From Gemmatimonadota bacterium (GTDB lineage: Bacteria > Gemmatimonadota > Gemmatimonadetes > Gemmatimonadales > GWC2-71-9): DNA of 64,000 nucleotides. Under the pieces are notes generated by a model that was not told the origin of the DNA, did not search any database, and saw only the letters and a program-made list of their open reading frames with translations. How positions within the stretch are numbered: the first letter of the stretch is position 1; each line of letters opens with the position of its first letter. Shown here piece after piece: positions 2 through 10,814 of this stretch. The position numbers were made by a program, and so were the translations under genes. The stretch is from NCBI GenBank assembly GCA_029863245.1, contig JAOTVV010000016.1, forward strand, positions 914 through 64,913, in the 5' to 3' direction.

Positions 2-1243
2 GCGGCGACGATCTCCTCGGCAGCCAACCAGACGTTCGTGGTGGGGGACGCCGCGACCACGGCGGCGGTGATCACGGTAACGGACGACGCGGTGGCGCCC
101 ACGATCAACTCGGGGCAGGAGATCCGGATCCGGATTCCGACGGCGTTCCCGATGACGTGGAACACGGCGGTGACGACGGTGACGGTGGGGGGCAGTGCGG
201 CGGCGAAGGTGAAGACGGTACTGAAGAACTACGAGGACGGCGGGAAGACGGCGGTGGTGGACGTGGACGTGAACTTCGTGGCCGGGGATCAGCTGACGAT
301 CACGGGCTTGCAGTTCATGAACTTCACGGCGGCGGCGGCGGCGGACCGGCTGGGGCTGGACGTGACCGACGACCAGGTGGCCGACGCGCTGGACGACAAG
401 ACCAAGGCAATCGGGGCGCCGCAGTTCACGTCGGCGGCCCATCAGAACTTCACGGTGGGCGGGGCGCCGCGGGCGATCAGCCCGATCACGGTGACCGACT
501 ACGCGAGCTTCGGGACGGTGACGGCGGCGCGGGACCTCCGGATCCGGATCCCCACGGGCTTCCCGATGACGTGGGAGACCGGGGACGTGGCGGCGACGCT
601 GGGGGGGAGTGCGGCGGGGAAGGTGTCGCCCACGGTGAGTTATGAGAACGGGGGCCGGACGCTGTGGCTGGACGTGCTGACGGACTTCGTCCCAGGCGAC
701 GTGCTGACGATCAGTGACCTGAGCTACGCCAACTTCACGACGAGCGCGGCGTTGAACCGGCTGGAGCTGGTGCTGGCGGGCGCGGGAGCGGGGACGGCGG
801 CACAGGATCTCAATTCGATTTCGGTGGGGGCGGCCACCATCTCCTCGGCCACGTACCAGACGTTCGTGGTGGGGAGCCCCGCCACGCCCATCAGCCTCAT
901 CACCATCACCGACGACCCGGTGGCACCCAAGGTCACGGCGGGCGGCGAGCTCCGGATCCGGATTCCGGCCGGCTTCAACATGGTCTGGAATACGGCGGTG
1001 ACGACCGTGACGCTGGGGGGGAGTGCGGCGTCGAAGGTGAAGACGACGCTCAAGAACTACGAAGACGGCGGGAAGACGGCGGTAGTGGACGTGGACGTGA
1101 ACTTCGCGGCGGGGGACCAGCTCACGATCTCCGGCTTGCAGTTCATGAACTTCACGGCACCGTCGGCACCGGACCGGCTGGGCCTGGACGTGAACAACGA
1201 CAAGTTCCCGGACGCGTTCGACGACAAGACCAAGACGATCATC
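2..1243 (+). repeat. Three tandem 414-nt (138-aa) coding repeats in A-B-A' order
   Basis: Units at 2-415, 416-829 and 830-1243 all share RIRIP.GFPM.W / GGSAA.KV / YE.GG.T / F..GD.LTI. Units 1 and 3 are much closer to each other than to unit 2. Confidence 0.9.
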
Positions 1244-2005
1244 GCCGGCGGGCTCACGTACGGCGTCGTGGTGACCCCGGACTCGACGGCCGTGACGCAG
1301 CTCCCGACCAACGGGACCAACTACACCACGACCTTTAACGTGAAGAACACCGGGAACACGCCCGACGGGTTCGATCTCGTGGCGACCACCACGCCGGGCA
1401 CCGCGATCACGGTGGTCTCGATCACCGGCCCCGGGGTCACCCCGGGCGGGACGCCGTCCATGGCGGAGCGCGCGGCCCTGGCCCCCGGAGATTCGGTGGT
1501 GGTGACCGTGACCTACTCGGTGGCTGCGGCCGGCGTCGGCACGGTGGATCAGCTGGTCTTCACGGCCCGGTCGCAGGGGAACGCGGCGGTCGAGGACGAC
1601 GGAAAGCTCCTCCTCACCGTTTCCGGTCCGCGGATCACGATCAGCCGTGCCGTGAACCCGAACGGCACGGTGCCTCCCGGTACCGACCTCACGTACACGG
1701 TCACCGTGACCAACAGCGGCAGCGAGGATGCCGTGAACGTCGTCGCGGTCGATTCCCTGGCAGCGGAGTTGGAGTTCAAGGTCGGGAGCGTATCAGACAG
1801 CCTCCCCGCCGGTGTGACCGTCAGTGTGCAGTACTCGGATGATGGGGGCGCGACGTGGGCCTACACGCCCGCCTCGCTCGGCTGCGGTGCCCCGACCGAC
1901 TACGATGGCTGCGTCACCCACATCCGCTTGGCCCTCCAGAACGTCCTGGGCTCGGTGGCCCCCGACAACACCGGCTCCTTCGAATACGTCGCCCGAATCA
2001 AGTAG
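2..2005 (+). CDS. 5'-truncated large repetitive surface protein (putative tip adhesin): three 138-aa beta-rich repeats, an Ig-like domain and a C-terminally incomplete DUF11-like domain
   Basis: Frame is open from base 2 (AATISSAANQTFVVG), so the gene starts before the window. C-terminal PGTDLTYTVTVTNSG...VVAVDSL...FEYVARIK matches the DUF11 pattern. Confidence 0.85.
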   Translation, partial: AATISSAANQTFVVGDAATTAAVITVTDDAVAPTINSGQEIRIRIPTAFPMTWNTAVTTVTVGGSAAAKVKTVLKNYEDGGKTAVVDVDVNFVAGDQLTITGLQFMNFTAAAAADRLGLDVTDDQVADALDDKTKAIGAPQFTSAAHQNFTVGGAPRAISPITVTDYASFGTVTAARDLRIRIPTGFPMTWETGDVAATLGGSAAGKVSPTVSYENGGRTLWLDVLTDFVPGDVLTISDLSYANFTTSAALNRLELVLAGAGAGTAAQDLNSISVGAATISSATYQTFVVGSPATPISLITITDDPVAPKVTAGGELRIRIPAGFNMVWNTAVTTVTLGGSAASKVKTTLKNYEDGGKTAVVDVDVNFAAGDQLTISGLQFMNFTAPSAPDRLGLDVNNDKFPDAFDDKTKTIIAGGLTYGVVVTPDSTAVTQLPTNGTNYTTTFNVKNTGNTPDGFDLVATTTPGTAITVVSITGPGVTPGGTPSMAERAALAPGDSVVVTVTYSVAAAGVGTVDQLVFTARSQGNAAVEDDGKLLLTVSGPRITISRAVNPNGTVPPGTDLTYTVTVTNSGSEDAVNVVAVDSLAAELEFKVGSVSDSLPAGVTVSVQYSDDGGATWAYTPASLGCGAPTDYDGCVTHIRLALQNVLGSVAPDNTGSFEYVARIK

Positions 2006-2032
2006 CGCCGCCGGTCACTCCGTGCCTGCCAC

Positions 2033-2059
2033 GTCACCCCAATGGTTACCTTCAGTAAC
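2033..2059 (+). promoter_or_regulatory. Putative upstream activator sequence GTYAC-N7-GTTAC-N5-GTAAC
   Basis: GTCACcccaatgGTTACcttcaGTAAC. The same geometry recurs at 4308-4334. Confidence 0.65.
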
Positions 2060-2119
2060 ACCGTCACCGGTTCGAACCCGATCGTCATCCCACCAGGATG
2101 TCTCCAACAATATATAGGG

Positions 2120-2130
2120 TAATCACTTAG
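2120..2130. promoter_or_regulatory. IHF-like AT-rich site between the UAS and the sigma54 promoter
   Basis: TAATCACTTAG. Its exact reverse complement is at 4375-4385 in the second promoter. Confidence 0.5.
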
Positions 2131-2156
2131 CCATTACGACCCTCGCCGGCCGGTAA

Positions 2157-2172
2157 CGGCACGCGTCGTGCC
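2157..2172 (+). promoter_or_regulatory. sigma54 (-24/-12) promoter
   Basis: CGGCACGCGTCGTGCC has GG(2158)-N10-GC(2170) and matches TGGCACG-N4-TTGC. Confidence 0.65.
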
Positions 2173-2213
2173 TTTTCTCCGACCCGGACGCAACTCGAAA
2201 TGTGGAGTCTCGC

Positions 2214-2399
2214 ATGGTCTTGAGGTGCCCGCACTGCGAAACGCTCGCGCGATATCTTCGCGGTGACTTCAGCGGCAAGTGGGTGATCTGCCACGTCTGC
2301 GAAGCACCGTTCGCGTGGCGCGAGCACCAGACGCAGCTGGAAGGGGCGAAAACCGTGTGGGGCAGAGCCCGACGCAGCACGGAGGAGACGGAGCGATGA
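2214..2399 (+). CDS. Small zinc-ribbon protein (CPHC...CHVC)
   Basis: GGAG precedes ATG 2214 (alternative GTG 2202). Two CxxC pairs. The stop overlaps the next start (ATGA 2396-2399). Confidence 0.6.
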   Translation: MVLRCPHCETLARYLRGDFSGKWVICHVCEAPFAWREHQTQLEGAKTVWGRARRSTEETER

Positions 2400-2926
2400 A
2401 CACGACGCGATACAGCTGGATCGCCGCGGCACTCGTGGCCGCAACGGTGACGCCCTTGGCCGCGCAGCAGGGCGAGCCCCAGGCCCTCGTCATTTCAGCG
2501 CAGAACCTCATGGCTGGGGACGAGCGGCACCAGGAATTGGCCGATCCTACCGCGCTGCTTCCCGGGGACGTGGTCCAGTACCGGCTGGTGTTCACCAACG
2601 TGAACGCCGTGCCGGTGCGCAACATCGCGCTGAACGACCCGATCCCGTCGGGACTCCGCTACGTCGGCGCCTCGGCCGCAGCCGATCGCGACGACACGGT
2701 GGTCGAGTTCTCGATCGATGGCGGAGTGACCTTCGCCGCCGAGCCGATGATCGAGGAGATGGTGGACGGCAAGCCGGTGATGAAGCCGGCGCCGCCGGAA
2801 CGCTACACGCACGTCCGTTGGACGGTACAGGGCTGGGTGCAACCCGGCGCCACGGTCACGGCCGAGTTTCAAGCCCGGCTGCCGGGCGCCGCAGCCGTCC
2901 CGGACAGTACCGCGAACGCCAAATAG
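2396..2926 (+). CDS. Secreted single DUF11-like domain protein (putative chaperone or assembly factor)
   Basis: RBS GGAGGAG and signal peptide (…TPLAA-QQ). Motifs LLPGDVVQYRLVFTN, LNDPIP, VEFSIDGG, YTHVRW, AEFQARL. Confidence 0.85.
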   Translation: MNTTRYSWIAAALVAATVTPLAAQQGEPQALVISAQNLMAGDERHQELADPTALLPGDVVQYRLVFTNVNAVPVRNIALNDPIPSGLRYVGASAAADRDDTVVEFSIDGGVTFAAEPMIEEMVDGKPVMKPAPPERYTHVRWTVQGWVQPGATVTAEFQARLPGAAAVPDSTANAK

Positions 2927-2967
2927 TCACTGGTCACACGTGACGCAAAAGAGATAGGGAGGAACTC

Positions 2968-4200
2968 ATGCTGTGGAACTCGAACTGGATGACGCGCACC
3001 TTGGCGCTTCTCGCCGTCGCCGCGGTCGCGCTGACCGTTCCGGCCTCGGCGCAGACGCCCGAGGGCACGATCATCACGAATACGGCCACGGTGAATTACG
3101 AAGACACCACCGGGAGGGCCTACACGCCCGCCAGCGCCTCGGTGTCGATCACCGTCGCCTTCAAGGCCGGGCTCCTCACGGTGGCGGCTGACGGCACCGT
3201 GTACCCCGCGTCCCCCAGCAACGCCGACACGATCGCGTTCACGATCAACAACACCGGGAACGGAGTGGACACGGTGCAGGTGACCGAGTCGATGACGGTC
3301 GCTGGGATCATGACCAACATCACATACCGGCTCAACGGTGCTGCCGTCTACCTGTCGCTCGGCGACCTCAACACGGCGCTCGCGTCGCTCCAGCTCGCTG
3401 GCATCACGGGGTCGGCACAGATCCAGGTGATCTATGACGTGCCCGACGGGCAGGGTGGCCAGTCCACCGTGTACAGCCTCACGGCGACGTCCGTCCGAGA
3501 CAACACGATGCAGAGTACCGGCCAGACCACGGTTGCGCCGCCGTCGGCGTACGCCGTCGTCGTGACGCCGGACAGCACCACCCCGGCGGCCGAGCGGCTC
3601 CCGGGTGGCGCCCCGTATCAGTTTACGTTCTACGTGAGGAACGCCGGGAACATCTCCGACACCTACACGCTCGCAGCCACCAACAGCGGCGCCGCGATCG
3701 TCGTCGGGACATTCAGCCCCGCGTCGCCAGTGACCATCGCGTCCGGCGATTCCGTGGCGGTGACGGTGGACTACACGATCAACGAGGTGGCGGCCGGCGC
3801 TACCGATCGGCTGACGCTGACCGCAACGTCGACCACGCAACCGCCGACGGACGACGGGTTCCTCGACATGGTCGTGGTGCGTCCGACGGTTGCGATCGCC
3901 AAGGCGGTGTTCGCGCCCGACTCCCTCACGGCCCTGGCGGGGAACGTGCAGCCGGGGGACATCATCTGGTATCGGGTTGAGGTGCAGAATCCCGCCGGTG
4001 CCAACGCCCGCAACGCCCAGAACGTCGTGGTGAGCGACTCGTTGCCGGCGGAGCTGACGTTTAGCCTGCTGGCTCCGGACACCGGGAGCGACTGGACCCT
4101 GGCCTACAACGCGGGCACGCGATTCGTGACCGCCACCCTCGGGGTGGCTCTCGCTCCGGGCGCGAGCCGTCACTTCTGGATCCAGGCACAAGTGAACTGA
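2968..4200 (+). CDS. Secreted DUF11-family protein, putative major fibre subunit
   Basis: Strong RBS GGGAGGAA and signal peptide (…PASA-Q). N-terminal TPEGTIITNTATVNY segment, two Ig-like domains, and a C-terminal DUF11 domain ending FWIQAQVN. Confidence 0.9.
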   Translation: MLWNSNWMTRTLALLAVAAVALTVPASAQTPEGTIITNTATVNYEDTTGRAYTPASASVSITVAFKAGLLTVAADGTVYPASPSNADTIAFTINNTGNGVDTVQVTESMTVAGIMTNITYRLNGAAVYLSLGDLNTALASLQLAGITGSAQIQVIYDVPDGQGGQSTVYSLTATSVRDNTMQSTGQTTVAPPSAYAVVVTPDSTTPAAERLPGGAPYQFTFYVRNAGNISDTYTLAATNSGAAIVVGTFSPASPVTIASGDSVAVTVDYTINEVAAGATDRLTLTATSTTQPPTDDGFLDMVVVRPTVAIAKAVFAPDSLTALAGNVQPGDIIWYRVEVQNPAGANARNAQNVVVSDSLPAELTFSLLAPDTGSDWTLAYNAGTRFVTATLGVALAPGASRHFWIQAQVN

Positions 4201-4243
4201 CCCGGTCCCCGCTTCGACGGGGCGTACACCAAGTTCCACGGCA

Positions 4244-4275
4244 GAGGCCCCGCGGTCCGTTGACCGCGGGGCCTC
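4244..4275 (+). terminator. 14-bp stem hairpin after the subunit gene (terminator or mRNA stabiliser)
   Basis: GAGGCCCCGCGGTC-cgtt-GACCGCGGGGCCTC, with only a weak U-tract. Confidence 0.65.
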
Positions 4276-4307
4276 GCCGCTTCCGTTAACTCCCCTTCAT
4301 TCAACGG

Positions 4308-4334
4308 GTTACCAATCCGGTTACCATCGGTAAC
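4308..4334 (+). promoter_or_regulatory. Putative upstream activator sequence, second copy
   Basis: GTTACcaatccgGTTACcatcgGTAAC, with the same spacing as 2033-2059. Confidence 0.65.
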
Positions 4335-4424
4335 TCCAGGGCCTCCAGCCTGCAAACGGGGCAAATCCTCTCCGCTAAGTGATTATGCTGTAACAGCTTA
4401 GGTAGCCCGCATGTGAGCGGTGTT

Positions 4425-4440
4425 TGGCATACGACCTGCC
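4425..4440 (+). promoter_or_regulatory. sigma54 (-24/-12) promoter
   Basis: TGGCATACGACCTGCC has GG(4426)-N10-GC(4438). Confidence 0.65.
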
Positions 4441-4472
4441 CTCTGAAGGGTGACGTTGGAGAGCGGGAATCC

Positions 4473-7400
4473 ATGCCACACGCAGGCCGAACAATGCGGA
4501 CCGGTATCCGGCCCGGGAGGGGACTCCTCGGGGCGGTCGCTGTGCTGCTGTGCTGTGGCTTGCCGCTCGAGGCTCAGGGACCCACCGCCGCTGGAACCGA
4601 GATCTCCAACGTCGCCCAGGCCACCTACGTGGCGCCCAACGGTCACACCTTCACCGCCGTCTCCAACGTCCTGGTGGTGACCGTCGCCCAGATGGCCGGC
4701 GTCGACCTCGCGCCCCCACGCACAACCACCGCAAACCCGGGTGGCCGCGTGGTGTTCGCCCACACCGTGACCAACGCGGGCAACGGTACCGACAGCGTAC
4801 GGCTCTCGGCCACATCGGCCGCCGGTTGGCCCACGCTGATCTACCGTGACCTGAACGGTGACGGCGTCCTCGACGCCGGAGAGTCGCAGATCCAGGGGCC
4901 GGTCACGCTCTCCGCGGGTGCCGCGATGGCTCTCCTCGTCGTCGTGGACGTTCCGACCTCGGCGACCGTGCGCGGCACCACCGACTCGGTGACGGTTGTC
5001 GCGGTGAGTGAGTTCGACGGCTCCCGACGCGATGCCTGCGTCGACGTGCTCCAGATCCAGGACGTCGGTGTCCTAGTCACGCTCTCCAAGCTCGTGGACC
5101 GCACCACGGCGACGGCCGGGGACATCCTCACCTACACCGTGAGCTACGCCGCTACCGGGACGAACACTGCTTTGACGCTCGCCATGGCCGACCCGATCCC
5201 GCTCGGGTCGTCGTACGTGGCGGGCTCGCTCGAGTGGAACGGCGCGCCGCTCACCGACGGGACCGGTGACGACGCCGGGACGTTCGATCCGGCAGGGAAC
5301 CGGGTGCTCTTCGGGGTGGGCGACGTTCCGGGAGGACAGAGTGGCGTAGTGGCGTTCCAGGTGCGCATCGACGGCGGCCTTGCCGCGGCGACGCCGGTGG
5401 CCAACAACGCAAGCGCCTCCTACGGGACGGTGGCCGGCACCGACTCGGTTGCCTCGAACACGGTCGTCACGACCATCGTCCTCGCGCAGCTCGGGCTGGA
5501 GAAGGTCCTGGTCGGTCCGACCACGGCGCGAATCGGGGAGCAGATCTCCTACACGCTCGTGTCGGTCAACCGATCGAGCACCACGCCGGCCCGCGATGTG
5601 GTTCTCTCCGACACCCTGCCGCCGGAGCTCGAGTACGTGACGGCCAGTCCTGGGGCGAACGTCCTCGGCCAGGTGGTGTCGTGGACCTTGGGCGAGGTTG
5701 CACCGGGCGACTCCGTCCGCGTCTCGCTCACGGCCCGGGTCTCGAGCCTGGTGCGCGACACGCTCTCGGTGCGGAACCTCGCTGTGCTGGCGGCGACGAA
5801 CGCCCCCACGCAGACGGCCATGTCAGACGGCGTCGACCTCGTGGGACTCCTGCCCAATCAGCTCTCGCTGGAGAAGACCGCCGACGTGCTCGAGGTGGGG
5901 TTGGGTGAGACGGCGCCGTACACTCTGGTGCTCGAGAACACTGGGGACAACGCGCTCTCCGGGATCGTGATCGTTGACACCTTGCCGCTGGGTGGCCGCT
6001 ACGCGGAGGGCAGCGCGATCGGGGCGGACTCGGTGCGGGTCGACGGACGGGTCGTCACGTTCTTCGTCACGGGGCCGTTGGCACCAGGTGCCAAACACAC
6101 GGTCCGCTACACGATGGCCGTCGTGTCGGCCGAGACGCCCGTGCTGGAGAACCGGGCCGTGGCGACCGCCGAGGGCGGGTTCGTCGTGGCGAGCATGCAG
6201 CTGGCCTGGGTCCGCGTGCGGCGGAGCTGGCCCATGGAGACCCGCGCGGTGATCGGCAAGGCGTGGCTCGACGTGAACGACGATGGCCGCCAGGGTGCCG
6301 GCGAGCTTGGGGTGGCCGGTCTCGACGTGTGGACCGACGACGGCGAAGTGGCGACCACGGATGGCGACGGGAAGTTCTCGTTCAGGAACGTGCGGCCCGG
6401 CGGTCATGCCTTCAGGATCGATCCGACCACGGTGCCGGCCGGCTACCGCATCGCAGCGTCGGATCGGATCGTGCCGGTGGACGCGGACGGCTGGACCACC
6501 CCGAACGTGCAGTTCCGGCTCGTGCCCACCACTGGTCGCGTGGAGGGCGCGCGCATCCCGGTGCCGTGGACGGTCGCGGTACGGCACGTTCGCCCCCCGG
6601 CAGACAGCCCACCCCCGACCCTCGCGGTGACGGCGCAGATAACCGACGCCGTCGATTCGACCGAGGCGGCGTCACCGTCGGTCCCGCTGGCCGTCCTGCC
6701 CGTGACCTTCGGCGTGGGGTCGGCGGTGCTCACGTCGGAATCCCACACAGTGCTCGACGACGTGGCGGGACTGCTGGTAGCGAGCCCGGAAGTCGAAGTC
6801 GAGATCGCCGGCCACACCAGCTCGACCGGGCCACGCCTGTTGAATCTGCGGCTCTCGCTCGAGCGGGCAACATCCGTGACCGACTACCTCATCGCGAGTG
6901 GCATCGATCGCTCACGCGTTCGCGTCGAGGCTTACGGGCCCGACAGACCAGCGGCGAGCAACGACACACCCGAGGGCCGGGCCCGGAACCGACGCGTCGA
7001 AATGAACTTGGTGCGGGGGACCAACGCGGCCGCCGCGGCCACGTTCGTGCGCGGCTTGGCAAGTGTGGGGCTTGCCGACAGCGCGCTTGTTCCGTCCGCT
7101 CCGCCCGCGCCGCGCCCGCCCGTCACCGAGTATGCTGTGACGCTCGCCAACCCAACTGGCCGGCCCCTCGACGGCCTGTCGCTGCGATTCGAAACGCCCC
7201 CCGACTCCGCCAGGCTCGTGATCGGGGGCGCGCCGGCGCACGTAGATCCCGCAACGATGGCGCTCCCGCCCATCGCGCCGCGTGCGAACGTTGCGCTCAC
7301 GGTGTGGGCGACCGCGACCGGCGATTCGACCTGGGTCGCACTGCAGGCACCCGGCCGCGCGGGCGAGCGGATGGCCGTGAGCGTGGCCGACCTGCCCGTC

Positions 7401-10400
7401 CCCACCGAAGGCGTGATAGACGTCGCCGTCGAAACAGCCGATCTCCCCGACCCGGCGCTGGTGGGAGCCGGTCGCGCGGTGACGCTGTCGGTCGCGCCAG
7501 CGACTCGCGGGTGGCCCGAGCTCACGCTGCCGCTGCCCAACGGGTGGGAGCCGGTGCCCGGCAGTACCCGCCTCGCCGGTGTGCCCACGCCCGACCCGGC
7601 CGCGCGGGCCGACTCCGGTGGTGGGACCCTGCTGGTCTGGGACTTCGGGAAGCGCGCGATGGGTCCGATCACGGTCGAGATGCGCCCGGCGGCGCATACG
7701 ATGCCGGACGAGTCAGTAACCATCCCCGCACTCCGGAGCGATACAGACCGCCTGGAGGACCGTCGAACGGCATTCCTGTTCGGGCCGTCCGTCGAGATCT
7801 TCGGGCTCCAGGATGGGACGATCACCGCCCGCGATCGCGTCTTCATCGGTGTGAAGGGCGAGGCTGGGCAGCCGGTCACCCTGTACGACGGTGACTCGGT
7901 GCTTGCGCGCGGCAATATCCGGATCGACGGCATTCACGACTTCATCGCCGTTCCGCTCGACCCGGGTCCGCACGTGCTGCGCGTAGCCATGCGCAACACC
8001 TGGAGTCAGGAGCGGTGGGACAGCATCGCCGTGCACGTGAGCGACGTGCCCGCCAGCCTGGTGGGTTCGACAGGCACGCTCACGCTGCGGGCGGATGGCC
8101 AGAGTGTCGAGACCGTCCGGGTCCGGATGCTCGATCGCTGGGGCGTGCCCCTCGTGTTCCCGACGCAGGCCACGGTGACGGTGGACGGCGCCGAGGCGCT
8201 GGGGAGCGACACCGACCCCTCGTCGGTCGGGCTGCAACACCGGACCGACTCGCTCGGCTGGCTCACCGTCCGGATCAAGCCGGGCCACGAGGTGCGTCGC
8301 GGCAGGCTCGCGCTGCGAACGGCCGATGTGACGTACGAACGCCCACTCGAAACGCTGCCTGCCACGCCTCCGTTGATGGTGACCGGTGTGGGCCGAGTGG
8401 GTGTGGGCGCCAGTCCCGACGCGTTCGGTGCGATCACGGCCCGCGGTCGGCTGGATGACCGCACGTCGGTGGTGGTGAGCGTCGACTCCCGGCGCCTCGA
8501 TGCCAACCGCGAGACATTCGGCCGCGACTTCGATCCGTTGGATGAGGCCCAGTACCCCATCCTGGGCGATGCCAGCAGCGTGCGGACCGTGAGCGCGTCG
8601 CAACACGCCGTGGCCGCCCGCATCGAGCGCGGCTTCGACTGGCTCGCCATTGGTGACGTGTCGACCGGCGATTTCGCTGAGGGACTGAGCCTCGCCGCCT
8701 ACAGGCGGGCCCTGTCCGGAGGCATGGCGCGGATTGCCACGGGGCCCGTCTCCTGGCGCGGGTTTGCCAGCGTCACCAGTCAGAGCCTCGAGCAGGAACA
8801 GATCCGCGGCGCCGGCATCTCGGGTCCGTACTCACTGGGCGGCGCGGCGATCCCCGGCACCGAGCAGATCGTGGTCGAGATGCGCGATCGCGAAAACCCG
8901 CAGCGCGTGCTCACTCGACAGATGCTGGTCCGCTTCATCGACTATCAGATCGACTACCAGGTGGGAACGCTCCTGTTCAAGCGACCCGTGCCGGCTGCCG
9001 ACGCGGCCGACAACCCCGTGTTCCTGATGGTGACCTATGAGGGGCGCAGTGGAGGAGACCAGCGCCTCGTGGGTGGCGTTCGCGCCAGCCTCGATGCGCT
9101 GGGTTGGTCGAGGCTCCAGGTCGATTCGCTGCGGCTGGGTGTCACCGCGATCCATGCCGACGAGCCCGGCGGGGCGTTCGACATGACCGGCGTCGACGTG
9201 CGACTCCTCCGGTTCGCCGGGTTCGATCTGGGTGGTGAGATCTCCTACTCGCATGCTCCGGACTCGAGCGGCTTCGCCACGTCGCTCACCGGATCCGTCG
9301 AATTGTTGGGTGGCGCCGCCAAACTGTCGGCGTCGTGGATGAAGATCGGCGACGGCTTCGGGAACCCGTCCAACATCGCGCTCCGGGCCGGCACCGAGGA
9401 ATTCAAGGCTGGCGGCACGTTCCAGGTTGGCGGCACGACGCTCCGCGCGCAGCACGACTTCATGACGTCCACGTCACAGGACGTGAGCCGTCGGCGTACG
9501 ACCCTCGGCGTGGGGCAGCCGGTGGGGAAGACCCTGAGGATCGAGGCGAATCAGACACTCGACAGTTTCGAGAACGGCGCCGACGGTGACCGCTCGCAGG
9601 CGTTGGAGGGGAAGCTCGTGTGGACACCCCTCGACCGGCTCGAGTTGTGGGCCGAGGGGCGGCAGCAGCTGGGGTCGAGCGAGAGCTTGGTGCGGCCGAA
9701 TCACGTCGGGGCAGGGGCGGGCGTCAACGTCACTGATGACCTCCGCGTCGAGCTGCGGCATCGCCGCGTGCTCCTCCCCGCGGACGAGTCGTACGGGGTC
9801 ACCAACATCGGGCTCACGTCGGACGTTGGCTTCGGCACTCGGGCCTGGGGATCCTATCAACTCGCTGGCGGTGCCGGCGCGCAGTACAACGCCGCGATCA
9901 TCGGTCTCAACAACCGGATCACCCTCGGTTCGGCCTGGACGGTGAACTCGATGTTCGAGCGTCGGTTCGGACTGAACGATGCGGAGCTGGGCGACCCGGT
10001 CCGCGCGCTCCCGTTTCTGCAGGACGAAGAGGACTACTGGTCTGCCGGGCTCGGGGTGGAGCTGTTGCCGCAGGGCGCCCCCTACCGCGTGACCGCACGC
10101 GGTGAGTACCGCGACGGCGAGCGGCTGTCGACCCGCCTGTTCACGCTGGCCGGTGATCTCTCGTTGAATCGCTCGCTGGCCGTGCTGTCCCGCCAGGAGC
10201 TGCTCTCCACTGAGCAGACCCTCACTACCGGAACCGAAACCGGTCGGCGCGTCGCGTCCCTCTGGGGGGTAGCGTTCCGGCCTATCGGCAGCGAGGCGGT
10301 GAACGTGCTGACCAAGGTCTCCTGGCTCGACGAGACCAACCCTCGGAACCGGGGCGTGTTGACCAGCCTGGGTCAGGAGCAGCGCCTGATCGGGGCGGCC

Positions 10401-10814
10401 GAGGTGATTTGGACACCGACACGCCGCACCGAGCTGGCGGGCCGCTATGCCATCCGCCGCACCGAGGCCGATCGGCTGCACGAGGACGGCGTCACCCAGC
10501 GGCTCGAGTCCACGGCCGACTACGTGGGCGCGCGCACCAGCGTGATCATCAACCCGTTCCTCACCTTCCGGGCGGATGGACGTCTCCTGATCGAGCGCGC
10601 GAGCGGCACCACCCGCTGGGACGCGGCACCGGCACTCGCCGTTGGGCTGCTCGATCTCCTCGAGGTGGTGGTGGGCTACCGCTTCGGTGACCTACGGGAT
10701 CCGGACTTCTCGGTTCGCGGCGGGCATGGGGCGTTCCTCACACTCGGCACCAAGGTCACGGAAGGGTCTGTCGCGACCGTGGCCGACTTCTGGCGCTCTC
10801 GGTTCGGTAGCTGA
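4473..10814 (+). CDS. Giant outer-membrane protein: subunit-like N-terminus, three DUF11 domains, SdrD-B-like domain, OmpA-like domain, Ig-like domains and a C-terminal beta-barrel
   Basis: Signal peptide, then TAAGTEISNVAQATY. Three K...G..(L/I/A).YT...D.(I/L)P modules. VIGKAWLDVNDDG...TTDGDGKFSF; GHTS...LSLERA...NRRVE; long amphipathic beta-strand C-terminus. Start set at ATG 4473 (RBS, downstream of the promoter). Confidence 0.88.
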   Translation: MPHAGRTMRTGIRPGRGLLGAVAVLLCCGLPLEAQGPTAAGTEISNVAQATYVAPNGHTFTAVSNVLVVTVAQMAGVDLAPPRTTTANPGGRVVFAHTVTNAGNGTDSVRLSATSAAGWPTLIYRDLNGDGVLDAGESQIQGPVTLSAGAAMALLVVVDVPTSATVRGTTDSVTVVAVSEFDGSRRDACVDVLQIQDVGVLVTLSKLVDRTTATAGDILTYTVSYAATGTNTALTLAMADPIPLGSSYVAGSLEWNGAPLTDGTGDDAGTFDPAGNRVLFGVGDVPGGQSGVVAFQVRIDGGLAAATPVANNASASYGTVAGTDSVASNTVVTTIVLAQLGLEKVLVGPTTARIGEQISYTLVSVNRSSTTPARDVVLSDTLPPELEYVTASPGANVLGQVVSWTLGEVAPGDSVRVSLTARVSSLVRDTLSVRNLAVLAATNAPTQTAMSDGVDLVGLLPNQLSLEKTADVLEVGLGETAPYTLVLENTGDNALSGIVIVDTLPLGGRYAEGSAIGADSVRVDGRVVTFFVTGPLAPGAKHTVRYTMAVVSAETPVLENRAVATAEGGFVVASMQLAWVRVRRSWPMETRAVIGKAWLDVNDDGRQGAGELGVAGLDVWTDDGEVATTDGDGKFSFRNVRPGGHAFRIDPTTVPAGYRIAASDRIVPVDADGWTTPNVQFRLVPTTGRVEGARIPVPWTVAVRHVRPPADSPPPTLAVTAQITDAVDSTEAASPSVPLAVLPVTFGVGSAVLTSESHTVLDDVAGLLVASPEVEVEIAGHTSSTGPRLLNLRLSLERATSVTDYLIASGIDRSRVRVEAYGPDRPAASNDTPEGRARNRRVEMNLVRGTNAAAAATFVRGLASVGLADSALVPSAPPAPRPPVTEYAVTLANPTGRPLDGLSLRFETPPDSARLVIGGAPAHVDPATMALPPIAPRANVALTVWATATGDSTWVALQAPGRAGERMAVSVADLPVPTEGVIDVAVETADLPDPALVGAGRAVTLSVAPATRGWPELTLPLPNGWEPVPGSTRLAGVPTPDPAARADSGGGTLLVWDFGKRAMGPITVEMRPAAHTMPDESVTIPALRSDTDRLEDRRTAFLFGPSVEIFGLQDGTITARDRVFIGVKGEAGQPVTLYDGDSVLARGNIRIDGIHDFIAVPLDPGPHVLRVAMRNTWSQERWDSIAVHVSDVPASLVGSTGTLTLRADGQSVETVRVRMLDRWGVPLVFPTQATVTVDGAEALGSDTDPSSVGLQHRTDSLGWLTVRIKPGHEVRRGRLALRTADVTYERPLETLPATPPLMVTGVGRVGVGASPDAFGAITARGRLDDRTSVVVSVDSRRLDANRETFGRDFDPLDEAQYPILGDASSVRTVSASQHAVAARIERGFDWLAIGDVSTGDFAEGLSLAAYRRALSGGMARIATGPVSWRGFASVTSQSLEQEQIRGAGISGPYSLGGAAIPGTEQIVVEMRDRENPQRVLTRQMLVRFIDYQIDYQVGTLLFKRPVPAADAADNPVFLMVTYEGRSGGDQRLVGGVRASLDALGWSRLQVDSLRLGVTAIHADEPGGAFDMTGVDVRLLRFAGFDLGGEISYSHAPDSSGFATSLTGSVELLGGAAKLSASWMKIGDGFGNPSNIALRAGTEEFKAGGTFQVGGTTLRAQHDFMTSTSQDVSRRRTTLGVGQPVGKTLRIEANQTLDSFENGADGDRSQALEGKLVWTPLDRLELWAEGRQQLGSSESLVRPNHVGAGAGVNVTDDLRVELRHRRVLLPADESYGVTNIGLTSDVGFGTRAWGSYQLAGGAGAQYNAAIIGLNNRITLGSAWTVNSMFERRFGLNDAELGDPVRALPFLQDEEDYWSAGLGVELLPQGAPYRVTARGEYRDGERLSTRLFTLAGDLSLNRSLAVLSRQELLSTEQTLTTGTETGRRVASLWGVAFRPIGSEAVNVLTKVSWLDETNPRNRGVLTSLGQEQRLIGAAEVIWTPTRRTELAGRYAIRRTEADRLHEDGVTQRLESTADYVGARTSVIINPFLTFRADGRLLIERASGTTRWDAAPALAVGLLDLLEVVVGYRFGDLRDPDFSVRGGHGAFLTLGTKVTEGSVATVADFWRSRFGS

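Follow-up and report, generated by a model that had tools for sequence, protein, structure and literature searches.

The first 10.8 kb of a 64,000-nucleotide stretch of DNA from a Gemmatimonadota bacterium (contig C23:914-64913 of the source genome, hereafter the window) holds five genes on the + strand, namely the 3' part of a tip gene, a zinc-ribbon-like open reading frame (ORF), and the genes for a small secreted protein, a subunit and a giant anchor protein. In this locus one domain module, DUF11, is split between proteins: tip, small protein and subunit end in a truncated copy, while the missing two-strand hairpin directly follows the signal peptide in the subunit and in the 2133-residue giant. 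This division points to a Gemmatimonadota surface stalk or fibre whose Sec-exported proteins would be joined in trans through split domains, probably locked by Lys-Asn isopeptide bonds, with the giant as envelope anchor, a reading to which we give a probability of roughly 0.6. A paper of November 2025 gave DUF11 the new name CLIPPER; its available text describes the domain as CnaA-like, with a Lys-Asn isopeptide bond that forms within the molecule with the aid of an Asp (PMC12617251).

A CLIPPER module divided between proteins

Pfam aligns the last domain of the subunit with DUF11 profile positions 9-84 of 114, in a match that reaches the last residues of the protein, and the terminal domains of subunit, tip and small protein all stop at profile position 84 of 114 or earlier. 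The internal module of the giant, in contrast, spans positions 3-109 of 114, its complete form (residues 219-356) reading VTLSK...VAFQVRID followed by GLAAATPVANNASASY...SNTVVTTIV. A whole nine-strand domain in one chain is therefore a property of the internal modules of the giant and not of the terminal domains of the subunit, tip and small protein. Scores against PF01345 (cut-off 24.6 bits) are 96.6 for the giant, 28.3 for the subunit and 25.4 for the tip, with the small protein under the cut-off at 22.5, and all four secreted proteins exceed 24 bits against TIGR01451. Additionally, the subunit-family profile matches 9ifr_A (E 8.6e-5), a solved CLIPPER domain of nine strands as described in the available parts of PMC12617251. 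The AlphaFold2 model of the subunit monomer (mean predicted local distance difference test score, pLDDT, 92.2; predicted template modelling score, pTM, 0.75) assigns seven strands to the last domain and two to the hairpin. A Foldseek search of this model against the PDB returns generic tandem-Ig matches with template modelling (TM) scores of at most 0.35, and Pfam assigns the isolated hairpins (42 and 43 residues) to no family. A hidden Markov model (HMM) of the first giant module misses the subunit parts, which are too divergent, so that HMMs of the subunit's own parts were used instead.

The split recurs across the subunit family. A search of 1.84 billion representatives returned 417 subunit matches, the best 150 of which include 70 full-length homologues. 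Among these 70, the protein ends at the same alignment column in 66, and the best-conserved part is the hairpin behind the signal peptide, with T30, I36 and D46 invariant. An earlier note on this DNA, made from the sequence alone, had recognised the split through a set of short motifs; every motif that it quoted is where it placed it, and Pfam, the 70 homologues and the tandem arrays treated below all confirm the division.

The bond-forming residues are distributed across the same cut, and the likely Lys-Asn lock that they imply had been missed in that note. In 9IFR the triad is Lys715, Asp748 and Asn806, the Asn lying 22 residues from the domain end (PMC12617251, available text). In the subunit family the body carries K312 (69 of 70 homologues) and D357 (70 of 70), and the hairpin carries N38 (67 of 70). 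The complete first module of the giant retains the triad within one chain, K226 being nearly invariant and D260 and N331 invariant among 36 giants. The tip family has the Lys in 37 and the Asp in 40 of 43 members; the small-protein family has the Asp in 104 of 120, with Lys in at most one of 120 at the two first-strand columns expected to hold it. These residue patterns suggest that Lys-Asn isopeptide bonds probably lock the junctions.

In nine long tandem-array relatives, HMMs for the subunit C-terminal domain and for the N-terminal hairpin match adjoining segments within repeats of about 124 residues. The projected gap between a body and the next hairpin is -1, that is, contiguous, in 60 of 141 pairs; most others project to -5 to -19 because the body match, a local alignment, stops early, and 15 are long gaps. 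A catalogue of such junctions across all proteins examined places a subunit-type hairpin behind a subunit-type body 27 times in eight proteins, a giant-type hairpin behind a subunit-type body once, and a short-giant hairpin behind an adaptor-type body 90 times. The tip-type body stands at the protein end 121 times and is followed by a hairpin in none.

Natural fissions occur at the same position. A pattern scan built from a five-row subunit alignment, with one genome per species, yields 80 loci, all metagenome-assembled, in which 65 open frames with a giant-type N-terminal match were sorted after nine more, mostly subunits cross-matched by the HMM, had been dropped. They comprise 36 fused long giants, 10 separate adaptors of about 310 residues, 15 frames that run off a contig end and 4 that are apparently frameshifted. 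All 10 adaptors have a signal peptide, a hairpin, an Ig domain, a truncated CLIPPER domain and a genuine stop codon, and Lys and Asp are present in all 8 of the 10 that the search pattern matched. The frame that follows, read in six of the 10 (the remaining four adaptors lie near the end of the sequence examined), encodes a short giant with its own signal peptide and with the same hairpin that is internal in the giant of the source genome. Specifically, the split point between adaptor and short giant is the strand 7/8 boundary of the first complete CLIPPER module of the source giant.

Fusions complement these fissions, three relatives joining the subunit to giant-type parts. In P0010 and L028 the subunit runs, with no signal peptide between, into a giant-type hairpin, an Ig domain and a truncated CLIPPER domain, after which P0010 stops and L028 continues with a separate short giant. 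L103, which belongs to a different family within the class, has the subunit and the whole giant, barrel included, in one frame of 2,300 residues. Two more distant relatives, P0121 and P0147, are head-to-tail double units in which the body of unit 1 is completed by the hairpin of unit 2, so that an N-terminal hairpin and a truncated C-terminal body stay free; through them the split-CLIPPER principle may reach past the family studied here. A candidate class of nine loci with subunit-adaptor fusions, that of the nine dropped frames, was rejected, most of its members being cross-matches of the giant N-terminal HMM to subunits; L028 alone was confirmed by reading.

By sequence comparison, then, the cut is a natural fission and fusion point of the domain. 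Where some genomes have the module in one piece and others distribute it over two secreted proteins, always cut at one strand boundary, reconstitution between chains is the best explanation, and this natural variation in the position of the cut is the strongest argument for complementation in trans. An alternative would treat the truncated domains as complete seven-strand Ig variants and the hairpins as extra strands of the first domain, so that nothing is complemented. The related family DUF7507 is more compact and typically seven-stranded (PMC12617251, available text), and weak Pfam matches to DUF7507 occur in the proteins of the locus. This view has to contend with body and hairpin lying contiguously within one repeat in relatives, with a near-invariant triad that puts Lys and Asp in the body and Asn in the hairpin, and with the existence of both fused and split forms of the same module; of all the readings weighed here, we give it the least credence.

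Proposed assembly and the alternatives

In the proposed assembly, the tip, one or more subunits and the giant would cross the inner membrane separately by Sec and be put together outside the cytoplasm. The acceptor would be the seven-strand body with its Lys and catalytic Asp, and the donor would be the missing two-strand hairpin, carrying the Asn, behind the signal peptide. A distal tip adhesin (acceptor only) would be followed by one or more subunits (donor plus acceptor) and by the giant (donor only), the N-terminal hairpin of each next unit entering the seven-strand body of the previous one, with the same polarity as in chaperone-usher pili. These roles had been assigned in the earlier note, and they agree with an HMM scan covering every open frame of the 93.9% complete genome, in which the five donor and acceptor ends of tip, small protein, subunit and giant are the only ones. 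After docking, the Lys-Asn bond would form by itself wherever both residues are present, as in complete CLIPPER domains. The giant would join last and would hold the structure in the envelope through a barrel of about 32 strands and, in the source genome, through an OmpA-like peptidoglycan-binding domain. A proline-rich linker before this domain could thread the barrel, leaving the stalk outside and the peptidoglycan-binding domain inside, and the wide barrel could also release the tip and the subunits. The Lys-less small protein could bind subunit hairpins in a reversible way until they pass for good to an acceptor with a Lys, or it could serve as a cap without a head. The steps that we infer are the docking between chains, the formation of the bond, homopolymerisation of the free subunit, transit through the barrel of the giant itself and reversible capping by the small protein.

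A three-chain complex prediction combining tip residues 415-667, subunit residues 29-410 and giant residues 55-215 gives scores of 0.76, 0.77 and 0.76, and partner-replaced controls give 0.00 and 0.00; a control with the tip replaced scores 0.71, a value confounded by the giant chain retained in it and too high for the required margin, so that the prediction counts neither for nor against the assembly.

Several observations weigh against this reading. Folded Ig domains would have to pass across the outer membrane. The tip of the source genome has Arg at the position of the bond Lys, and the Asn of the giant's N-terminal hairpin is found in 23 of 36 giants, so that an isopeptide lock would not be universal. 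The tandem arrays were retrieved using the subunit as query, and their likeness to the subunit is therefore partly a product of selection, which also affects the junction catalogue. Moreover, the hairpin has a pLDDT of 94-97 in the subunit monomer model, indicating that it has a packing partner in the model, which may be the C-terminal domain of the same chain. Such closure in cis would make the subunit a closed three-domain monomer and the proteins of the cluster independent molecules that merely share domains; AlphaFold models of other donor-strand pilins are also closed monomers (TafA; PMC11821415, available text). Pairing in cis is excluded in the tip, the small protein and the giant, since the first two lack a hairpin and the third a truncated domain, and the adaptors likewise carry an acceptor with no donor in the same chain. 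Fission and fusion take place at one boundary, the pieces being separate genes that each encode a signal peptide, which also speaks against closure, as do the near-invariant linkage of small protein, subunit and giant and the short spacing between hairpin and domain 1; this spacing resembles that between consecutive rod domains and would force a tight three-domain ring. We regard closure in cis as highly improbable.

If assembly in trans holds, homopolymerisation of the free subunit is somewhat more probable than not, given that it has both ends, that subunit- and giant-type hairpins share a core motif and are cross-detected by their HMMs, and that P0121 and P0147 contain a homotypic junction. 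What weighs against it is L103, whose subunit forms a module of the giant and whose genome yielded no free subunit, so that the system can work with exactly one subunit module; this favours a fixed-order stalk over a polymer. Such a split adhesin would consist of one tip, one subunit (plus an adaptor where present) and one giant, forming a stalk of defined length in which the subunit does not add to itself and the split aids exchange of the tip or export. The fusion of subunit and adaptor part in L028 fits this arrangement, as do the three types each of acceptor and donor, which pair preferentially in natural fusions, and the confinement of the tip-type acceptor to the tip and the small protein. 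Against it, the motif common to both hairpin types implies that an acceptor of the giant hairpin should accept that of the subunit too, the 27 junctions make subunit-type body plus subunit-type hairpin a natural contiguous module, and the double units of P0121 and P0147 have free ends; we consider a fixed-order stalk unlikely.

The trans-assembly reading can also be pressed into a more specific form, that of a sortase-free and chaperone-free covalent diderm pilus, which would form a class of its own among bacterial pili and a counterpart in nature to the SpyTag/SpyCatcher chemistry. Here the subunits would be ligated head to tail by Lys-Asn bonds and would grow tip-first through the barrel of about 32 strands until the barrel's own hairpin terminates the fibre, with the small protein as a Lys-less decoy. 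We put this forward tentatively, as possible with the odds somewhat against it.

Components, locus and distribution

The giant begins with the donor hairpin and an Ig domain, continues through three complete CLIPPER domains, an SdrD_B domain, the OmpA-like peptidoglycan-binding domain and beta-sandwich domains, and ends in a large predicted C-terminal beta-barrel. Its likely start codon (Table 1) matches that of a 90% identical homologue. The OmpA match is to PF00691, a peptidoglycan-binding domain found in YiaD, in Pal and at the C-terminus of OmpA, and not to the eight-strand OmpA barrel; the "OmpA-barrel" anchor of the earlier note thus gives way to a peptidoglycan-binding domain and a separate, larger C-terminal barrel of about 32 predicted strands. 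Among the best 120 of 224 giant homologues the OmpA-like domain is missing from many, and since it is present in many but not all of them, attachment to peptidoglycan seems optional; the barrel region is 47-94% identical in those 120.

An AlphaFold2 model of giant residues 944-2133 (44-row alignment; mean pLDDT 77.5, pTM 0.53) consists of beta-sandwich domains followed by 32 consecutive long strands at model residues 592-1173, corresponding to residues ~1535-2116 of the protein. A very large outer-membrane barrel in the giant is well supported. Foldseek gives Deinococcus SlpA as the best barrel match, followed by LptD, BtuB and FimD, with low TM scores throughout. VIA-align places the FimD/PapC ushers on top (Z 16.5, 16.0 and 15.9) and generic barrels at 14.8 or below (OccK3 14.8), for a model of 1190 residues that is over the tool's advised size; the best usher alignment of the C-terminal region has a root-mean-square deviation of 6.4 over 308 aligned residues. 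Kinship of the predicted barrel to ushers is only a lead, the margin over generic barrels being just 1.7 Z units.

The tip gene extends upstream of the window onto C23:1-913 and from there onto the end of contig C43 (L004:9589-12687), where its first ~1000 codons lie, with an overlap of about 40 residues. The full protein comprises a signal peptide, a head of about 340 residues, three complete DUF11 domains, an SdrD_B domain and repeats of about 135 residues. The head has no Pfam match, and its best ESM Atlas score, 0.82, is under the meaningful level. The repeats are broken across the two contigs, and their number has perhaps collapsed in assembly, as the copies are 89% identical in DNA. A homologue search returns 168 tip proteins at E <=1e-5, with 46-64% identity over the last two domains among the best ~90 listed. 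Their heads are unrelated to one another (FN3, beta-helix, LamG, DUF2341 and BNR), and variable heads on conserved last two domains are expected for an exchangeable adhesin.

The small protein is acceptor-only and resembles the last domain of the tip minus the head and minus the Lys. The earlier note had cast it as a chaperone, a role that finds no support; it is itself a truncated domain of acceptor type, not a PapD-like strand donor. Its family of 357 matches shows 54-73% identity, bar a near-identical top match, compared with about 30-50% in the subunit family. The stop codon of the zinc-ribbon-like ORF overlaps the start of the small-protein gene (ATGA), and of the 69 related loci that could be tested, 38 have this ORF between the tip and small-protein genes by a single-sequence HMM; its product may be a cytoplasmic partner or regulator of the system.

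The signal peptides of all four secreted proteins end in Ala-Gln (window ~3049-3057, 4572-4580 and 2462-2470 among the sites). Across the 70 subunit homologues Thr30 is invariant and Gln29 occurs in 66, and this conserved mature N-terminus may be relevant to processing or assembly. A 260-nucleotide contig from an estuary metatranscriptome library is identical to window 3469-3728, within the subunit gene; an RNA library can contain DNA, and contigs carry no expression level. One metatranscriptome run contains a small share of the sampled words, and its contigs give no ranking of the genes.

Table 1. Features of the split-CLIPPER locus, in window coordinates
Feature	Position	Strand	Remarks
Tip protein, C-terminal 667 residues	2..2005	+	Ends FEYVARIK*
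Tip last domain, truncated CLIPPER/DUF11 acceptor	1625..2002	+	Pfam and homologue comparison
61-residue CxxC...CxxC zinc-ribbon-like ORF	2214..2399	+	Signal peptide absent
Small secreted protein, 176 residues	2396..2926	+	...AEFQARL plus 14-residue tail; single truncated CLIPPER-like domain, tip type
Subunit, 410 residues	2968..4200	+	Ends FWIQAQVN*; signal peptide, donor hairpin, two Ig-like domains, truncated CLIPPER acceptor
Subunit donor hairpin, residues 30-63	3055..3156	+	Strands 35-42 and 55-62; Asn38
Subunit acceptor, seven-strand truncated CLIPPER, residues 305-410	3880..4197	+	Lys312, Asp357
Giant anchor protein, 2133 residues, ORF opens at 4413	4494..10814	+	Likely start ATG 4494
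Giant N-terminal donor hairpin, residues 56-95	4578..4697	+	Asn66
Giant first complete CLIPPER module, residues 219-356	5067..5480	+	K226, D260, N331
Giant OmpA C-terminal-like peptidoglycan-binding domain, residues 765-860	6705..6992	+	PF00691
Giant predicted outer-membrane beta-barrel, residues ~1535-2116	9015..10760	+	AlphaFold2 model, 32 consecutive long strands

Gene order was counted with purpose-built HMMs in the 76 loci where a subunit is called. Of 72 testable loci, 71 have the small protein immediately upstream of the subunit, and in the 72nd it is masked by an overlapping frame; the giant lies immediately downstream in 61 of 64. The tip is found upstream in 41 of 52 loci and elsewhere in one more. 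A lack of conserved co-occurrence had been named beforehand as a possible refutation in the earlier note; the order is conserved in the 80 loci. That note had also expected similar clusters in other diderms, an expectation that the scan does not bear out, 79 of the 80 loci being titled Gemmatimonadota (Gemmatimonadales, Gemmatimonadaceae, Gemmatimonas and Longimicrobiales) and one an uncultured bacterium. Within the phylum the distribution is patchy: in an even sample, matches at E <=1e-20 occur in 26 of 401 genomes, and in the source's own family in 21 of 165. The system is present in 7 of 41 close relatives.

Upstream of the tip gene, contig C43 encodes a sigma-54-dependent response regulator (L004:8021-9391), an Hpt protein and a hybrid histidine kinase, and a sigma-54 regulator stands upstream in 28 of 43 loci. 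A strict scan for the sigma-54 consensus with up to two mismatches finds 9 matches against 9.3 expected, none of them in the locus. Under a loose pattern (GGCAC-N5/6-TGC), to which no chance rate is attached, candidate sigma-54-like elements sit just 5' of the zinc-ribbon or tip genes in several loci, consistent with the sigma-54-dependent regulator next door. GGCACG-N5-TGC elements resembling -24/-12 promoters lie at window 2158-2171 (+), L017:6791, L019:2218 and 4231, L020:7374 and L021:15431. Downstream of the giant is an unrelated gene for a Glu/Leu/Phe/Val-type dehydrogenase. Long minus-strand ORFs run antisense to the subunit and giant genes (for example 2869-4239 (-), 456 residues); they are probably not genes, being typical of DNA with 68% G+C and without a family match.

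Comparison with known systems

If the trans-assembly reading is right, the locus would represent a further way of building surface fibres besides the chaperone-usher, type IV, type V, curli, sortase and TasA-like routes. In it a CnaA-like isopeptide domain would for the first time be divided among subunits, and an outer-membrane bacterium would have its first predicted self-ligating fibre; DUF11/CLIPPER, a very widespread surface domain so far described only as a stalk stabiliser, would gain a role in assembly. The three donor and three acceptor types in one operon would be natural orthogonal split-domain ligation pairs that could serve protein engineering, and the surface biology of a poorly known soil and estuary phylum would become directly testable with simple experiments. 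The series of fusions and fissions would offer a clean example of pilus subunits arising by the cutting of a long adhesin at domain-internal boundaries. In the literature, supplements aside, no description of a split CLIPPER/DUF11 assembly system or of Gemmatimonadota fimbriae was found; mentions of "DUF11" in the tafi paper proved to refer to DUF1102.

Chaperone-usher pili (type 1 and P pili) share the logic and polarity proposed here, with an acceptor tip and N-terminal extensions that complete the Ig fold of the previous subunit. In these pili PapH is the donor-only terminator at the base. The present system differs in that a two-strand hairpin of a nine-strand CnaA-like domain takes the place of one strand completing a six-strand incomplete Ig fold, in that a covalent lock is predicted, and in that terminator, anchor and barrel are combined in one polypeptide. 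Moreover, the source genome (93.9% complete) has no match to the PapD-like chaperone family PF00345 or the usher family PF00577, both of which are found in control genomes; the small protein does not match the former and the giant has no usher match in Pfam. The usher fold is a 24-strand barrel with a plug, compared with about 32 strands in the model of the giant.

Sortase pili are similar in being covalent Ig-domain polymers of tip, shaft and base pilins, and the subunit reaches 27.5 bits, below the cut-off of 30, against the RrgB isopeptide domain (NCBIfam). The source genome has no match to the sortase family PF04203, which the control genomes contain, and there is no LPXTG motif, subunit and tip both ending with the truncated domain. 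The earlier note had stated that the locus lacks sortase and PapC/PapD genes, and by these family searches the statement extends to the genome. Type V pili of Bacteroidota have a lipoprotein signal peptide and an N-terminal strand released by a protease, traits that the subunit does not share, its signal peptide being without Cys and its hairpin starting right after the Ala-x-Ala-Gln site. Autotransporters resemble the giant in outline only, through an N-terminal Ig stalk and a C-terminal barrel, and no autotransporter or intimin-type beta-domain is among its Pfam matches. SpyTag/SpyCatcher, engineered from CnaB-type domains of Gram-positive adhesins, shows that a domain cut ahead of its final strand or strands can reconstitute from two chains and ligate itself; here the split would be natural, would involve a CnaA-like domain and would be used for assembly.

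Among complete CLIPPER adhesins, B9T28_05395 of Acinetobacter silvestris (9IFR) has the Lys-Asp-Asn triad together with an OmpA-like domain for anchoring (PMC12617251). Domain family and triad are the same as here, but that adhesin forms its bond within the molecule and builds its stalk from a single polypeptide; the available text of that survey treats intramolecular bonds only and does not mention a split form. A likeness in bond chemistry is offered by BsaA, a TasA-family protein of Clostridium perfringens, in which, according to the available text, an N-terminal donor segment enters the sheet of the neighbour and an Asn/acid/Lys triad, its members spread over neighbouring subunits, spontaneously gives an isopeptide bond between them (bioRxiv 10.1101/2024.11.04.621531). 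The likeness lies in a bond-forming triad divided between donor segment and acceptor body, here on the evidence of residue conservation. BsaA differs in belonging to another fold family and to a Gram-positive bacterium without an outer membrane, in having neither a variable-head tip nor a barrel anchor, and in using Glu as the acid where Asp stands here; no TasA/camelysin-type family turns up when the four proteins are matched to Pfam with an E limit of 0.01. Archaeal threads (Saci_0406) likewise combine donor-strand complementation with sortase-free intermolecular isopeptide bonds (PMC9715654); as far as the available text describes them, their single-domain subunit has no Pfam domain, and the bond joins the N-terminal amine to an Asn of subunit n+2. 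Donor-complemented, self-ligating fibres are thus already known from BsaA and the archaeal threads; the novelty here lies in the splitting of a CnaA-like domain, in a donor of two strands, in the occurrence in a diderm and in the fusion of the terminator to a giant predicted barrel.

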